A DNA stretch of 59,951 bases, taken from NCBI RefSeq assembly GCF_003334335.1, contig NZ_QOWQ01000031.1; one strand, written 5' to 3'. Position numbers and translations under genes: made by a program. The notes under the pieces are model-generated. The model was not told the DNA's origin, searched no databases, and saw only the letters and a program-made list of their open reading frames with translations. This document shows positions 10,583 through 45,868 of the stretch, piece after piece (positions within the stretch are counted from its first letter, which is position 1; each line of letters begins with the position of its first letter). Origin of the DNA: Escherichia coli. Lineage in GTDB: Bacteria; Pseudomonadota; Gammaproteobacteria; Enterobacterales; Enterobacteriaceae.

Positions 10583-11598
10583 ATGAGTCAGAATACGCTG
10601 AAAGTTCATGATTTAAATGAAGATGCGGAATTTGATGAGAACGGAGTTGAGGTTTTTGACGAAAAGGCCTTAGTAGAAGAGGAACCCAGTGATAACGATT
10701 TGGCCGAAGAGGAACTGTTATCGCAGGGAGCCACACAGCGTGTGTTGGACGCGACTCAGCTTTACCTTGGTGAGATTGGTTATTCACCACTGTTAACGGC
10801 CGAAGAAGAAGTTTATTTTGCGCGTCGCGCACTGCGTGGAGATGTCGCCTCTCGCCGCCGGATGATCGAGAGTAACTTGCGTCTGGTGGTAAAAATTGCC
10901 CGCCGTTATGGCAATCGTGGTCTGGCGTTGCTGGACCTTATCGAAGAGGGCAACCTGGGGCTGATCCGCGCGGTAGAGAAGTTTGACCCGGAACGTGGTT
11001 TCCGCTTCTCAACATACGCAACCTGGTGGATTCGCCAGACGATTGAACGGGCGATTATGAACCAAACCCGTACTATTCGTTTGCCGATTCACATCGTAAA
11101 GGAGCTGAACGTTTACCTGCGAACCGCACGTGAGTTTACCTGCGAACCGCACGTGAGTTGTCCCATAAGCTGGACCATGAACCAAGTGCGGAAGAGATCG
11201 CAGAGCAACTGGATAAGCCAGTTGATGACGTCAGCCGTATGCTTCGTCTTAACGAGCGCATTACCTCGGTAGACACCCCGCTGGGTGGTGATTCCGAAAA
11301 AGCGTTGCTGGACATCCTGGCCGATGAAAAAGAGAACGGTCCGGAAGATACCACGCAAGATGACGATATGAAGCAGAGCATCGTCAAATGGCTGTTCGAG
11401 CTGAACGCCAAACAGCGTGAAGTGCTGGCACGTCGATTCGGTTTGCTGGGGTACGAAGCGGCAACACTGGAAGATGTAGGTCGTGAAATTGGCCTCACCC
11501 GTGAACGTGTTCGCCAGATTCAGGTTGAAGGCCTGCGCCGTTTGCGTGAAATCCTGCAAACGCAGGGGCTGAATATCGAAGCGCTGTTCCGCGAGTAA
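10583..11598 (+). pseudogene. rpoS: rpoS (sigma-S) disrupted by a 23-bp tandem duplication causing a frameshift
   Basis: ATG at 10583 after an AGGAG RBS. ORF1 (to 11272) carries sigma regions 1.2-2 and then 45 out-of-frame residues. ORF2 (11158..11598) carries regions 3.2-4 in a different frame. The span is 1016 bp, i.e. 993 + 23. Confidence 0.85.
11112..11157 (+). repeat. Perfect 23-bp tandem duplication (TTTACCTGCGAACCGCACGTGAG x2) inside rpoS
   Basis: Copies at 11112-11134 and 11135-11157, flanked by a GTT microhomology. Confidence 0.9.
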
Positions 11599-21741: not shown

Positions 21742-23820
21742 TTAAATCAATGCCGATTTATCAATTCCCAGCCGCTTCATCCGTGACAGCAGGGTCGTGC
21801 GTTTCAGCCCCAGACGTTGCGCAGCGCCTTTAGGCCCGGCAACCACGCCGTTGGTTTCTTTCAGCACGCGCACAATCAACTGATATTCATCTTCGCCCTC
21901 CAGGGCGACAACCGTTGCGGCAGGCGGCGTTTCAGGTTCCGGTAAAACAATATCTGGCAATGACAGCTGCAGCACGTTACCGCGTGTTAGCAATACCGCG
22001 CGCTCAATGACGTTTTCCAGTTCGCGTACGTTACCCGGCCACTCCATGTTGCTCAAGGTGCGCAGCGTCTCGGCAGGAATGCTGTCGATATTGCGCCCCA
22101 GACGACGGGCAATTTTGAAGGTAAAGGCTTTCGCCAGCAGCGGAATATCTTCCGGACGCTCGCGTAGTGGCGGCAGGTGAATCGGGAATACGTTCAGGCG
22201 GTAATAGAGATCGCTACGGAACTCACGGTCGGCGACCATTTTTTTCAGATCGCGGTTAGTCGCGGCGATTAGACGCACGTCCGTCTGAATGATTTTGTTG
22301 CTGCCGAGACGTTCAAACTCCTGTTCCTGCAATACACGCAGCAACTTCGGCTGTAACTCCAGTGGCATATCGCCCACTTCGTCGAGGAACAGGGAGCTTT
22401 TATCCGCCAGTTCAAAACGACCGATACGCTGGGCGCTGGCACCGGTAAAAGCCCCACGCTCATGACCAAACAGATCGCTTTCCAGCAATCCGGCAGGCAT
22501 CGCCGCGCAGTTCATTTTGACCATGCGGCGATTATTACGCCCACTGAGATTATGGATCGCACGGGCAATCAGCTCTTTACCCGTGCCAGTTTCACCGAGG
22601 ATCAGCACGGTACTGTCACTTTGCGCCACCATTTCAACTTGTTTAAGCACGCTGTACATGGCTTCGCTGCGGCCAATAATCTCGCCAAATTCACTATCAA
22701 CATTGTTGAGCTGCTCGGTCAGGGCGAGGTTTTCATCAACCAGCCGTTCTTTCAGACGATGGATTTCCTGATAGGCGAGGGCGTTATCGACAGCGATTGC
22801 CACACGTTCGGCAATCTGGCGCAGTAAATTCAGATTGGTAGTGGTAAACACTTTCTCTTCGCATTGCGCCAGTTTCAGCACGCCCAGCATGGTGTCGCCA
22901 GACATCAGCGGTAACAGGCACAAGGTTTGAATCTGGTTGCCCCAGGTGTCGAACAACATGCGTTCATAGGGGGCTAAATCGTCCCGCTCGTGGAGATTGA
23001 TCAGCAGCATCTCTTTACTTTTGAACACGCGTTCGGTGAGGGTTCCGGCTTCATCGACTTCGCTCTGTTCGTGGGCGGGATGCTGTTTATCAAGATAGTG
23101 AGTGGAGTAGATGTTGAGTTTGTTTTTACGGTGGCTGCGTAAGACGATACTGATATCGTCAATGTCGAAATAGTAATGGATTTCTTTGGCGACTTCGCTG
23201 ACCAGTTCGTCCATATCCAGGCGGGAAAGCACCGCGTTGGTGATGGCGACCAGGATGCGGAAGTTATCGCGTTCCCGGCATAACAACTCATAGTCGACAT
23301 TGTTAACGACGCGGCTCTGGATTTGTTCGGTGACGACAGAAACGATCTGCGTAAATGTTTGCAGACGATTGAACTCTTTTTCGCTCCAGGGGCGATCGTC
23401 ATAACGAATAAATTCACAGCCACCAAAAATATGCCCTTCCGCCGCCAGTGGCATCAGGCAATAGTGACCAAATTTTGGGTATAGCCCACCTGCGTCCAGC
23501 TGCGGCCAGGTTTCACAAAATTCTTCGTAACTGCAATGCAGCGTATCAGGGCGCGACAAAATGCTGCGTACCGGACCGTGTGCCAGAACAGTTTCGTCTT
23601 CATATTTAATGGGGGTGTCTTTTTCACGCGACGCGTAATAAGACGCACGTTGAGTCTGCGCTTGCCACAACACAATAGCCGCGTTGTCGGCGAGCGCAGA
23701 ACGCTTTACCAGTTGCGAAAGAGCCTCACACAGCGAGGCCAGATCGGGCTGCTGCAATAGTGTCCGAGTGATGTCGAACAACCCTTGTTGTCCGAGATCA
23801 CTCATCGGTGTATATGACAT
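21742..23820 (-). CDS. fhlA: Formate hydrogenlyase transcriptional activator (sigma54-dependent)
   Basis: Start trimmed to MSYTPMSDLG (692 aa). GAF domains, AAA+ GETGTGKE and GAFTGA motifs, C-terminal HTH. Confidence 0.9.
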   Translation of the reverse strand: MSYTPMSDLGQQGLFDITRTLLQQPDLASLCEALSQLVKRSALADNAAIVLWQAQTQRASYYASREKDTPIKYEDETVLAHGPVRSILSRPDTLHCSYEEFCETWPQLDAGGLYPKFGHYCLMPLAAEGHIFGGCEFIRYDDRPWSEKEFNRLQTFTQIVSVVTEQIQSRVVNNVDYELLCRERDNFRILVAITNAVLSRLDMDELVSEVAKEIHYYFDIDDISIVLRSHRKNKLNIYSTHYLDKQHPAHEQSEVDEAGTLTERVFKSKEMLLINLHERDDLAPYERMLFDTWGNQIQTLCLLPLMSGDTMLGVLKLAQCEEKVFTTTNLNLLRQIAERVAIAVDNALAYQEIHRLKERLVDENLALTEQLNNVDSEFGEIIGRSEAMYSVLKQVEMVAQSDSTVLILGETGTGKELIARAIHNLSGRNNRRMVKMNCAAMPAGLLESDLFGHERGAFTGASAQRIGRFELADKSSLFLDEVGDMPLELQPKLLRVLQEQEFERLGSNKIIQTDVRLIAATNRDLKKMVADREFRSDLYYRLNVFPIHLPPLRERPEDIPLLAKAFTFKIARRLGRNIDSIPAETLRTLSNMEWPGNVRELENVIERAVLLTRGNVLQLSLPDIVLPEPETPPAATVVALEGEDEYQLIVRVLKETNGVVAGPKGAAQRLGLKRTTLLSRMKRLGIDKSALI

Positions 23821-26294: not shown

Positions 26295-27157
26295 CGCTGT
26301 GTCTCCAGCCAGTTCAGCCACTGGTCCATCCCTTCGCCGCTGGTGGCGGAAATAAGGATGATTTCAATTTCTGGATTGACTTCGCGGGCGCAGGCGATGC
26401 ACTTTTCAACGTCAAAGTTGAGATACGGCAACAGGTCAACTTTGTTGAGCAGCATCAGCGAGGCGGCGGCAAACATATGCGGATATTTCAGCGGTTTGTC
26501 TTCACCTTCGGTAACGGAAAGCACCGCCACTTTGTGTTTTTCACCGAGATCGAAGCTGGCCGGGCATACGAGGTTGCCAACGTTTTCGATAAACAGAATA
26601 CCGTTATCGTCCAGTGGCAGACGCGGTGCGGCGTCGGCAATCATCTGTGCGTCAAGATGGCAGCCTTTACCGGTGTTCACCTGAATCGCTGGTGTGCCGG
26701 TAGCGCGAATGCGTGCGGCATCGTTCACGGTTTGCTGGTCGCCTTCAATAACTGCGCACGGAACGCTGTCTTTCAGGCGCATTAGGGTTTCCGTCAGCAG
26801 GGTGGTTTTACCGGAACCAGGGCTGGAAACCAGGTTGAGCACCAGTTGCTTGCGGGCAGCAAAGCGCGCGCGGTTGCGTTCAGCCAGACGGTTATTTTTG
26901 TCCAGCACGTCAATTTCGACTTCCAGCATCCGACGCTGGCTCATGCCCGGTGCGTGAGTGCCCGCTTCGCCATGACCGTAATGCAGGTCGCCTTCTTCAG
27001 TCTGGCTGGGGGTAAATTCAGGCGCTTTAATGCCGGTGATTTTCATCTTCGGGCGTGCCGCCGGGGCAAATGGCGCGCTACGAAACGCGGAATGAGGGTT
27101 ATGTTCATCACCCTCGATATACAGGTTGCCTTCACCGCAACCGCATGTTGTACACAT
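26285..27157 (-). CDS. hypB: Hydrogenase nickel-incorporation GTPase HypB
   Basis: 290-aa ORF with N-terminal MCTTCGCG metal-binding motif and GSGKTT P-loop. Confidence 0.92.
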
Positions 27158-27160
27158 CGC

Positions 27161-27511
27161 TCACTCCTGGTCTATTTCTATCCGCCGAATCTGTAAACCG
27201 TCGTCTGCCACAATCTGCAGCATGTCACCATGACACTGTGGACAGCGGCGGACGCGCTGGGTCAGTAGCGTCACATACTGTTGGCATGTTTCACACCAGC
27301 ATTCGGCCTCTTGTTCTTCGAGGTGCAGTTTACAACCTTCCGCCACGCTGCCGCGGCAAACCAGATCAAAACAAAAGGCAAGAGAGCTGGTTTCGACACA
27401 AGAAAATGCGCCAATTTTGAGCCAGACCCCAGTTACGCGTTTTGCGCCGTGTTTTGCGGCCTGCTGTTCGATCAATTCCAGTGCCCGTTGGCAGAGGGTT
27501 ATTTCGTGCAT
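27161..27511 (-). CDS. hypA: Hydrogenase nickel-insertion protein HypA
   Basis: Start trimmed to MHEITL (116 aa); CxxC...CxxC zinc site. Confidence 0.88.
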   Translation of the reverse strand: MHEITLCQRALELIEQQAAKHGAKRVTGVWLKIGAFSCVETSSLAFCFDLVCRGSVAEGCKLHLEEQEAECWCETCQQYVTLLTQRVRRCPQCHGDMLQIVADDGLQIRRIEIDQE

Positions 27512-27541
27512 ATCGCCTCCCATTAACTATTGCCAGCTACA

Positions 27542-27557
27542 AGCAATAATTGTGCCA
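27542..27557 (-). promoter_or_regulatory. Sigma54 -24/-12 promoter for the hyp operon
   Basis: Minus strand reads CTGGCACAATTATTGCT (GG-N10-GC), about 30 bp upstream of the hypA start. Confidence 0.55.
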
Positions 27558-27670
27558 GTGTTGATTATCCCTGCGGTGAATAATGTCGATGATGTCGAAA
27601 TGACACGTCGACACGGCGACGAAATTCATCTTTAGCTTAAAAATCTCTTTAATAACAATAAATTAAAAGT

Positions 27671-27686
27671 TGGCACAAAAAATGCT
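27671..27686 (+). promoter_or_regulatory. Sigma54 -24/-12 promoter for the hyc operon
   Basis: TGGCACAAAAAATGCT (GG-N10-GC), about 37 bp upstream of the hycA ATG; FhlA-dependent in E. coli. Confidence 0.6.
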
Positions 27687-27722
27687 TAAAGCTGGCATCT
27701 CTGTTAAACGGGTAACCTGACA

Positions 27723-28184
27723 ATGACTATTTGGGAAATAAGCGAGAAAGCCGATTACATCGCACAGCGGCATCGTCGCCTACAGGACCAGTGGCACATC
27801 TACTGCAATTCGCTGGTTCAGGGGATCACGTTATCGAAAGCGCGCCTGCATCACGCCATGAGCTGCGCGCCGGACAAAGAACTCTGTTTCGTCCTTTTTG
27901 AACATTTTCGCATTTACGTCACCCTGGCGGATGGCTTTAACAGCCACACCATCGAGTATTACGTCGAAACAAAAGATGGCGAAGACAAACAGCGGATTGC
28001 GCAGGCGCAACTGAGCATTGACGGCATGATTGATGGCAAGGTCAACATCCGCGATCGCGAACAGGTTCTGGAACACTATCTCGAAAAAATCGCTGGCGTT
28101 TACGACAGCTTATACACCGCTATTGAAAACAATGTGCCGGTGAATTTAAGCCAACTGGTAAAGGGACAAAGCCCGGCAGCATGA
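27723..28184 (+). CDS. hycA: Formate hydrogenlyase regulatory protein HycA
   Basis: 153-aa ORF; first gene of the hyc operon. Confidence 0.88.
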   Translation: MTIWEISEKADYIAQRHRRLQDQWHIYCNSLVQGITLSKARLHHAMSCAPDKELCFVLFEHFRIYVTLADGFNSHTIEYYVETKDGEDKQRIAQAQLSIDGMIDGKVNIRDREQVLEHYLEKIAGVYDSLYTAIENNVPVNLSQLVKGQSPAA

Positions 28185-28308
28185 GCTGAGGCTTTGCCCG
28201 TTTTGCAGGCGTTACGCCTGTTTGGGGATGGGCGTGTCGATGAGTGTCGAAAATGACATTTCATCGGCATGTTTTCGTCAAAAATGACAATCACCTGAGG
28301 AATGCCTG

Positions 28309-28920
28309 GTGAATCGTTTTGTAATTGCTGACTCCACGCTCTGTATCGGCTGCCACACTTGTGAGGCCGCCTGTTCAGAGACGCATCGCCAGCACGGCCT
28401 GCAATCAATGCCGCGCCTGAGAGTGATGCTGAATGAAAAAGAATCTGCGCCGCAGCTCTGTCACCACTGTGAAGATGCACCCTGCGCGGTGGTCTGCCCG
28501 GTTAACGCCATCACCCGCGTCGATGGGGCCGTGCAGTTGAATGAAAGCCTGTGCGTAAGCTGCAAGCTGTGCGGCATCGCCTGCCCGTTTGGCGCAATTG
28601 AATTTTCCGGCAGCCGTCCGCTGGATATTCCGGCAAACGCCAATACCCCGAAAGCGCCACCGGCACCGCCTGCTCCGGCGCGTGTCAGCACATTGCTTGA
28701 CTGGGTGCCAGGTATTCGCGCGATCGCCGTCAAATGTGACCTTTGTAGCTTTGATGAACAAGGTCCGGCCTGCGTGCGGATGTGCCCGACTAAAGCCCTG
28801 CATCTGGTGGATAACACCGATATCGCCCGCGTCAGCAAACGTAAGCGTGAGCTGACCTTTAACACGGACTTTGGCGATCTCACCTTGTTTCAGCAGGCTC
28901 AAAGTGGAGAGGCTAAATGA
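28309..28920 (+). CDS. hycB: Formate hydrogenlyase subunit 2 (4Fe-4S ferredoxin)
   Basis: 203-aa ORF with several CxxCxxCxxxCP motifs. Confidence 0.9.
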   Translation: MNRFVIADSTLCIGCHTCEAACSETHRQHGLQSMPRLRVMLNEKESAPQLCHHCEDAPCAVVCPVNAITRVDGAVQLNESLCVSCKLCGIACPFGAIEFSGSRPLDIPANANTPKAPPAPPAPARVSTLLDWVPGIRAIAVKCDLCSFDEQGPACVRMCPTKALHLVDNTDIARVSKRKRELTFNTDFGDLTLFQQAQSGEAK

Positions 28921-33948: not shown

Positions 33949-34715
33949 TGAGCAATTTATTAGGCCCCCGTGACGCCAACGGCATTCCGGTCCCCATGAC
34001 GGTGGATGAATCCATCGCCAGCATGAAGGCGTCGTTACTGAAAAAAATCAAACGTTCTGCCTATGTTTACAGCGTGGACTGCGGCGGCTGCAACGGTTGC
34101 GAAATCGAAATTTTCGCCACGCTTTCGCCGCTGTTTGATGCAGAACGCTTCGGCATTAAAGTCGTTCCTTCACCGCGTCATGCGGATATTTTACTGTTTA
34201 CCGGCGCGGTCACCCGTGCAATGCGATCCCCTGCGCTGCGTGCGTGGCAGTCCGCGCCGGACCCGAAAATTTGTATCTCCTACGGTGCCTGCGGTAACAG
34301 TGGCGGGATCTTCCACGATCTCTACTGCGTGTGGGGCGGTACGGATAAAATTGTCCCTGTGGATGTTTATATCCCTGGCTGCCCGCCAACGCCTGCCGCC
34401 ACGCTGTACGGCTTTGCAATGGCGCTCGGCCTGCTGGAGCAGAAAATTCACGCCCGTGGGCCGGGTGAACTGGATGAACAACCGGCGGAGATCCTGCATG
34501 GTGATATGGTGCAGCCGCTGCGCGTGAAAGTGGATCGCGAAGCACGTCGCCTGGCGGGTTATCGTTACGGTCGTCAGATTGCCGATGATTACCTTACACA
34601 GTTAGGGCAGGGCGAAGAACAGGTTGCACGCTGGCTGGAAGCGGAAAACGATCCGCGTCTGAACGAGATTGTCAGCCATCTGAATCATGTTGTTGAAGAG
34701 GCGCGTATCCGATGA
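33948..34715 (+). CDS. hycG: Hydrogenase 3 small subunit (NuoB-like)
   Basis: 255-aa ORF with CGGCNGCE motif. Confidence 0.9.
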
Positions 34716-39904: not shown

Positions 39905-40052
39905 ACATTGTCATCACATGTCATCGTCACTAGTGTCGATGACATCGTTTTTCCTGCATTACAGAAATTAATTTCCTTAAATAACAGTAAATTAAAAACT
40001 GGCATGATTTGTGAATGTATCGGCGCATTAACTGTCATTGCTGGAGAATTTG

Positions 40053-45729: not shown

Positions 45730-45745
45730 TGCAGATTGCGTGCCA
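45730..45745 (-). promoter_or_regulatory. Sigma54 -24/-12 promoter for norVW
   Basis: Minus strand reads TGGCACGCAATCTGCA, about 48 bp upstream of the norV start. Confidence 0.65.
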
Positions 45746-45800
45746 GTTTTTTATCTGATTGTTTTTACTCTATAAATAAAATTATGCCCATTAATGAGTA

Positions 45801-45856
45801 GTCAAAATGACTATCAATCAAATGGTCGATATGACAATATCTATAGTCAAATTGAC
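45801..45856. promoter_or_regulatory. Three NorR enhancer boxes (GT-N7-AC)
   Basis: GTCAAAATGAC (45801-45811), GTCGATATGAC (45825-45835), GTCAAATTGAC (45846-45856), between the divergent norR and norV starts. Confidence 0.7.
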
Positions 45857-45868
45857 AGTGAGGCAAAG

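Follow-up and report, generated by a model that had tools for sequence, protein, structure and literature searches.

The stretch of DNA analyzed here (the window, 59,951 nucleotides of Escherichia coli) carries the hypABCDE-fhlA and hycABCDEFGHI genes in divergent orientation, together with hydN and hypF (Table 1). The region singled out by the initial annotation, positions 27512 to 27722, proved to be the exact 211-bp spacer between the ATG of hypA (27511, minus strand) and the ATG of hycA (27723, plus strand). The genes at either end of the two units were readily identified: HycA scored 301 bits against NF007567 (cut-off, 180), and FhlA, a protein of 692 amino acids identical to that of K-12, scored 1542 bits against NF011958 (cut-off, 830). 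RefSeq holds no annotation for the spacer itself, because promoters are not annotated there. Formate induction of the FhlA regulon and its counteraction by HycA are established for K-12. The first description of divergent NtrA (sigma-54)-dependent hyc and hyp promoters is said to be that of Lutz et al. 1990 (Mol Microbiol 4:13).

Table 1. Genes, promoter motifs and candidate regulatory elements, in window coordinates
Feature	Position	Strand	Sequence or basis
hypA, first gene of hypABCDE-fhlA, 116 aa	27161-27511	-	K-12 annotation, identical protein, NCBIfam HypA match
hycA, formate hydrogenlyase regulator (anti-activator), first hyc gene	27723-28184	+	NCBIfam equivalog NF007567
fhlA, sigma-54 enhancer-binding activator, last gene of the hyp unit	21742-23820	-	NCBIfam equivalog NF011958
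P_hyp, sigma-54 promoter of hypABCDE-fhlA	27542-27558	-	CTGGCACAATTATTGCT; -24 GG 27556-55, -12 GC 27544-43
P_hyc, sigma-54 promoter of hycABCDEFGHI	27670-27686	+	TTGGCACAAAAAATGCT; -24 GG 27672-73, -12 GC 27684-85
UAS1, candidate FhlA-type enhancer	27584-27621		TGTCGATGATGTCGAAATGACACGTCGACACGGCGACG; six YGWCR units
IHF-like site, between UAS1 and the hyc -24	27653-27665	+	TAACAATAAATTA; one mismatch to WATCAANNNNTTR
Near-consensus sigma-54 motif inside hycA, hyc direction, between UAS1 and UAS2	27791-27807	+	GTGGCACATCTACTGCA
UAS2, second candidate FhlA-type element, hycA-hycB spacer	28235-28291		from TGTCGATGAGTGTCGAAAATGACA to TTTTCGTCAAAAATGACA
hydN-hypF sigma-54 promoter, FhlA regulon	39999-40015	+	CTGGCATGATTTGTGAA; ChIP-seq site OS26; YGWCR cluster 39909-39944
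norV sigma-54 promoter with NorR boxes, norR-norVW	45730-45858	-	TGGCACGCAATCTGCA; ChIP-seq site OS25; three GT-N7-AC NorR boxes upstream

Two sigma-54 promoter motifs in the hypA-hycA spacer

The initial annotation had proposed one sigma-54 promoter for each operon, both fitting GG-N10-GC. This fit is real, since exactly 10 nt lie between the GG and the GC in each motif. The plus-strand 16-mer TGGCACAAAAAATGCT was found precisely where it had been placed, at positions 27671 to 27686. For the minus strand, the 16-mer TGGCACAATTATTGCT does occupy positions 27542 to 27557, but the 17-mer that had been quoted for these coordinates carries a leading C and extends to 27558, a slip of one base. From the 3' end of the 16-mer to the ATG there are 36 nt in front of hycA and 30 nt in front of hypA. 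Transcription start sites were placed 19 nt beyond the motif centre, the convention of Bonocora et al. 2015 (PMC4591121). On this basis the hyc start is predicted at A27697 on the plus strand, with a leader of 26 nt to the hycA ATG, and the hyp start at A27531 on the minus strand, with a leader of 20 nt to the hypA ATG.

A pair of GG-N10-GC matches could in principle be a product of chance in an AT-rich spacer, devoid of any promoter function. The pattern taken alone is indeed loose, and a search of the window for the fuller consensus with one mismatch allowed returned 4 matches, where 3.8 were expected. The exact matches tell against this reading. When compared with the consensus TGGCAC-N5-TTGCW, P_hyp agrees at 16 of 16 positions and P_hyc at 15 of 16, where ATGCT replaces TTGCT. 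Among all 59,951 bases of the window, TGGCAC-N5-WTGCW has two occurrences against an expectation of 0.18, both in the hypA-hycA spacer and each facing its own gene; none of 100 shuffles contained two or more matches.

We searched the surroundings for other elements as well. The spacer holds no sigma-70-like promoters beyond chance (1 weak match, 0.8 expected), a scan of positions 27300 to 28400 for sigma-70 promoters and terminators returned nothing in excess of chance, and an Rfam scan of the whole window yielded three tRNAs at its far end and nothing else. Aside from this, we observed that P_hyp (27531-27557) and P_hyc (27671-27697) form a 27-nt inverted repeat of 81% identity, running beyond the -12 element as far as the predicted starts. 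In the part that extends past -12, both promoters have TGCTTnnAGCTGGCA in common; this extension is restricted to Escherichia and is lacking in the other genera.

Conservation and published evidence

A scan with HycA, limited to one genome per species, gave 80 loci from about 20 enterobacterial genera, among them Escherichia, Salmonella, Citrobacter, Enterobacter, Klebsiella, Kluyvera, Raoultella, Lelliottia and Kosakonia. Every one of the 80 loci contains exactly one forward TGGCA-N7-TGC, starting 50 to 53 nt 5' of the hycA ATG, and exactly one reverse copy before hypA. Across these loci the promoter 16-mer ends 34 to 37 nt short of the hycA ATG and mostly 28 to 34 nt short of the hypA ATG. 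In an alignment of 15 genera, the invariant columns comprise the hyp -12 GCAATA, the hyp -24 TGCCA, the hyc -24 TGGCA, the hyc -12 TGCT and parts of the enhancer, whereas the five bases that separate the -24 and -12 blocks vary freely (AAAAA, GAATC and GATGA, for example). A fixed GG/GC around a variable N5 is what selection on sigma-54 contacts predicts. Within E. coli, the 1.1 kb around the spacer, 100% identical to K-12 MG1655, was matched in 5,426 of 5,426 complete genomes, as was the spacer alone at no less than 90% identity.

By the number of bases that separate the two promoter 16-mers, the related loci form spacing classes: 91 in 3 loci, 101-102 in 19, 111 in 1 and 113-115 in 58. These steps of about one or two helical turns suggest that the rotational phase between the promoters may be kept, with the reservation that the classes track clades and that only about three independent events lie beneath them. 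Steps of about 10 to 11 bp also appeared in the distances from the enhancer core to the promoters; these are partly an artefact of a 9-10-nt repeat inside the enhancer, so we relied only on the total promoter-to-promoter spacing classes.

The claim of divergent sigma-54 promoters was borne out by published occupancy data, with which the conservation over 80 loci agrees. The 17-mers of two sigma-54 ChIP-seq sites, OS27 and OS28, are letter for letter the two motifs of the window. OS27 (TTGGCACAAAAAATGCT), before hycA, was recorded with a fold above threshold of 91 and a predicted start 26 nt from the gene, and OS28 (CTGGCACAATTATTGCT), before hypA, with a fold above threshold of 201 and a predicted start 20 nt from the gene; EcoCyc lists both as experimentally confirmed promoters, according to Table 1 of Bonocora et al. 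2015 (PMC4591121). Moreover, the hycA/hypA spacer emerged as a peak when sigma-54 holoenzyme was used for in vitro selection (gSELEX; Shimada et al. 2021, PMC8743547), and the orthologous hycA/hypA sites of Salmonella Typhimurium bind sigma-54 by ChIP-chip (Samuels et al. 2013, PMC3844500). Microarrays in Salmonella showed a sigma-54 dependence of 26-fold for hyc and 5.6-fold for hyp, and both operons were assigned to FhlA (PMC3844500), in agreement with the FhlA- and formate-dependent control that had been suggested for this DNA. Chance matches, already refuted by the invariant position of the sites across 80 loci and about 20 genera and by their ChIP-seq occupancy (PMC4591121), retain a negligible likelihood. 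We thus read the spacer as two back-to-back sigma-54 promoters switched by FhlA and formate, with a probability of about 97%. Sigma-54 occupancy, sigma-54 dependence and the assignment to FhlA and formate are here carried over from published work on identical or orthologous sequence. As the divergent hyc/hyp promoters are already known in full, their rediscovery in E. coli adds nothing new.

A separate question is how much of hyp transcription P_hyp accounts for. The operon may be expressed mainly from an FNR-dependent sigma-70 promoter inside hypA, with P_hyp only adding to this under fermentative, formate-rich conditions. The summit of an FNR ChIP-seq peak at 2,848,688 (U00096.2) corresponds to about window position 27492, within hypA near its 5' end; the authors of that study assigned it to hycABCDEFGHI, yet its position fits an FNR-dependent internal hyp promoter better. 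Positive regulation of the hyp operon by FNR has been reported (PMC3149613), and in Salmonella the sigma-54 dependence is the weaker for hyp (PMC3844500). However, P_hyp has both the stronger sigma-54 occupancy and the better consensus match of the two promoters, and a scan of hypA for the FNR box TTGAT-N4-ATCAA at up to 2 mismatches found nothing that would account for the published FNR peak. On balance we lean toward such an internal promoter, which would complement the sigma-54 promoter and not replace P_hyp; P_hyp and P_hyc would in that case differ in importance. An FNR-dependent promoter internal to hypA was reportedly described by Lutz in 1991 and by Messenger and Green in 2003.

Candidate enhancers and the proposed mechanism

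FhlA control calls attention to the sequence between the two sigma-54 promoters, where UAS1 forms the densest YGWCR cluster of the window. Its centre is upstream of both predicted starts, by about 95 bp for hyc and about 72 bp for hyp. An unbiased scan of the window for clusters of at least five YGWCR in 50 nt recovered only UAS1 and the cluster at 39909-39944 upstream of hydN, with 0.36 expected per shuffle, and the UAS1 core TGnCG..GAAATGACA is kept across genera. The first 22 nt of UAS1 have a near copy at 28235-28258, within UAS2; a pattern that fits both elements finds these two and nothing else in the window (0.00 expected), and UAS2, too, is kept in other genera. UAS2 terminates in the highly conserved TTTCGTCAAAAATGAC, immediately 5' of the ribosome-binding site of hycB.

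A review gives CATTTCGTACGAAATG as the FhlA consensus; even with 3 mismatches allowed, the window does not contain it. The half-site CGAAATG shows no enrichment there (10 matches, 14 expected), and between the promoters only the half-site-like CGAAATG (27596) and CGAAATT (27620) are present. The candidate enhancer was therefore tentatively assigned to FhlA through its repeat structure, its conservation, its recurrence at three FhlA-regulated sites and the literature. Descriptions of the FhlA enhancer sites or of the internal FNR-dependent hyp promoter were not found in the literature searched.

An IHF-like site separates UAS1 from the hyc -24 element. The scan for the IHF consensus is not significant on its own, with 51 matches in the window and 42 expected. 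Nevertheless, the orthologous site is a perfect WATCAANNNNTTR in most other genera, and its distance to the hyc -24 T, counted from its first base, is 18 to 19 nt in at least 62 of the 81 loci; it is only this conservation across genera that gives the site weight.

These elements can be allocated to the promoters in two ways. Either a single enhancer is shared, or UAS1 serves P_hyc only, by way of the IHF bend, and the distant UAS2 serves P_hyp. The second arrangement would suit the presence of the IHF-like site on the hyc side alone and the conservation of UAS2 as a near copy of UAS1. Moreover, UAS1 is unusually near P_hyp, nearer to its start than most enhancers, so that P_hyp may use UAS2 instead. 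No feature of the sequence ties UAS2 to P_hyp, however, and UAS2 could equally boost hyc or act on hycB. We consider the odds of separate enhancers to be even. Footprinting papers on FhlA from 1994 are said to have assigned a site between hycA and hycB to hyp.

A third sigma-54-like site is located inside hycA. Together with P_hyp it makes up a 28-nt inverted repeat of 71% identity. As an internal promoter, it would give hycB-I transcripts that lack the anti-activator hycA. The evidence leans against this role, which we hold to be very improbable: the motif is missing from the 135 published sigma-54 ChIP-seq sites, though only about 110 bp from a strong peak (PMC4591121), most of it is accounted for by conserved W-x-x-Y-C codons, and in 19 of the 81 loci Cys is encoded by TGT, with loss of the -12 GC.

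Taken together, a mechanism can be proposed for the two FhlA-switched sigma-54 promoters, in which we infer where transcription starts and how the enhancers are shared out among the promoters. P_hyp would drive hypABCDE-fhlA leftward and P_hyc would drive hycABCDEFGHI rightward. Sigma-54 RNA polymerase would sit on each promoter as a closed complex, unable to initiate alone. FhlA is proposed to bind UAS1, with its TGTCG/TGACA repeats, between the promoters, and probably also UAS2 in the hycA-hycB spacer; once FhlA has bound formate, its ATPase would open both promoters. Directly upstream of the hyc -24 element, an IHF-type bend would bring the enhancer-bound FhlA to the polymerase. The cotranscription of fhlA with hyp would close a positive feedback loop, and the position of the anti-activator hycA as the first hyc gene a negative one. 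The promoters confine hydrogen production from formate to fermentation in E. coli and its relatives, and they make a textbook example of enhancer-dependent transcription.

Gene integrity and comparison with known systems

The initial annotation had further stated that the hyc, hyp, hydN, hypF and fhlA genes are intact and that the FHL-1 complex is predicted to be functional, subject to fdhF. We found all of these genes at full length and free of internal stops, and the proteins encoded by fhlA, hypE/D/C/B/A, hycA-hycI, hydN and hypF are those of K-12 except for a single substitution, R42S in HycG. The first statement thus stands. The second holds for the reading frames but is overstated, as intact frames are necessary and not sufficient. 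The genes for fdhF, selenocysteine insertion, molybdenum cofactor and ModE, nickel uptake, FNR, rpoN and IHF all lie outside the window; with so many required genes elsewhere, and with the substitution in HycG, "predicted functional" goes too far. In BL21(DE3), FHL activity is missing, for the most part because fnr, modE and molybdate uptake, and nickel transport are defective; FDH-H activity stays limiting as well, and the wild-type hyc operon failed to rescue FHL activity in this strain (PMC3149613). The control region is intact here, but intact genes do not equal a functional pathway.

The HycG substitution affects codon 42 (window 34071-34073) and lies three residues N-terminal to the first Cys in the CGGCNGC Fe-S cluster motif. 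The surrounding 86-nt stretch has a 100% match in no complete E. coli genome, and R42S occurs in 0 of 1,315 matching genomes. Position 42 is R in chain G of the solved FHL structure 7Z0S and H in MbhJ of P. furiosus.

Other features of this genome were noted along the way. The rpoS gene (10583-11598) carries a 23-bp tandem duplication, with GTTTACCTGCGAACCGCACGTGA present twice at 11111-11156, not found in K-12; as the frame is shifted and 5 in-frame stops follow, full-length RpoS cannot be made. The stretch with the duplication was matched at 99% or more in 4 of 5,411 complete E. coli genomes. With a short query over the duplication junction, BLAST joined the pieces, and genomes with and without the duplication were inseparable. 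For students of this strain, this rare frameshift and HycG R42S would matter more than the promoters. A type I-E CRISPR array with the repeat GTGTTCCCCGCGCCAGCGGGGATAAACCG and a period of 61 occupies positions 100 to 438, adjoining iap; positions 1 to 404 of the window cannot be aligned to K-12, which means that most of its spacers differ from those of the K-12 array. At the 3' end of otnK/ygbK (14672), a 1-bp insertion relative to K-12 yields a frame of 420 amino acids, compared to the 388 annotated in K-12.

The nearest known counterpart is the hycAp/hypAp pair of K-12, which has the same 17-mers in the same orientation and at the same distances to the start codons. From position 405 to 59951 the window is 99.716% identical to K-12, and over 27000-28300 the two agree base for base, with zero differences. 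The K-12 MG1655 genome nevertheless differs from this close relative, in which rpoS is frameshifted and HycG R42S is private. Salmonella Typhimurium has the same divergent layout of hycA and hypA, with 113 bases between the -24 elements. In contrast to the TGGCAC found here, its promoters read TGGCAT at -24, and their N5 differs too (TGGCATGGAAAATGCT, TGGCATAAATATTGCT).

Within the same regulon, hydN-hypF and fdhF resemble hyc and hyp in that a -24/-12 promoter stands behind an AT-rich IHF-like module, with a cluster of TGTCG/TGACA/CGTCA farther upstream. Indeed, the hydN (39973-40015) and hyc (27645-27686) promoters share a near-identical module of about 30 nt, AATAACA(A/G)TAAATTAAAA..TGGCA, made up of the IHF-like site and the -24 element. 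Unlike the divergent hyc/hyp pair, hydN-hypF and fdhF have single promoters; moreover, the hydN -12 element reads TGA and not TGC, and fdhF has about 9 extra bases from the IHF-like module to the -24 element.

The window contains one more system of related design, norR-norVW. NorV shows 5 amino acid differences from K-12, and nowhere else in the right half of the window is the divergence greater. As at hyc/hyp, a sigma-54 promoter, divergent genes and an adjacent gene for a GAF-domain enhancer-binding activator come together. Here, however, the sigma-54 promoter serves norV only, the enhancer boxes follow GT-N7-AC, and nitric oxide, not formate, is the signal.
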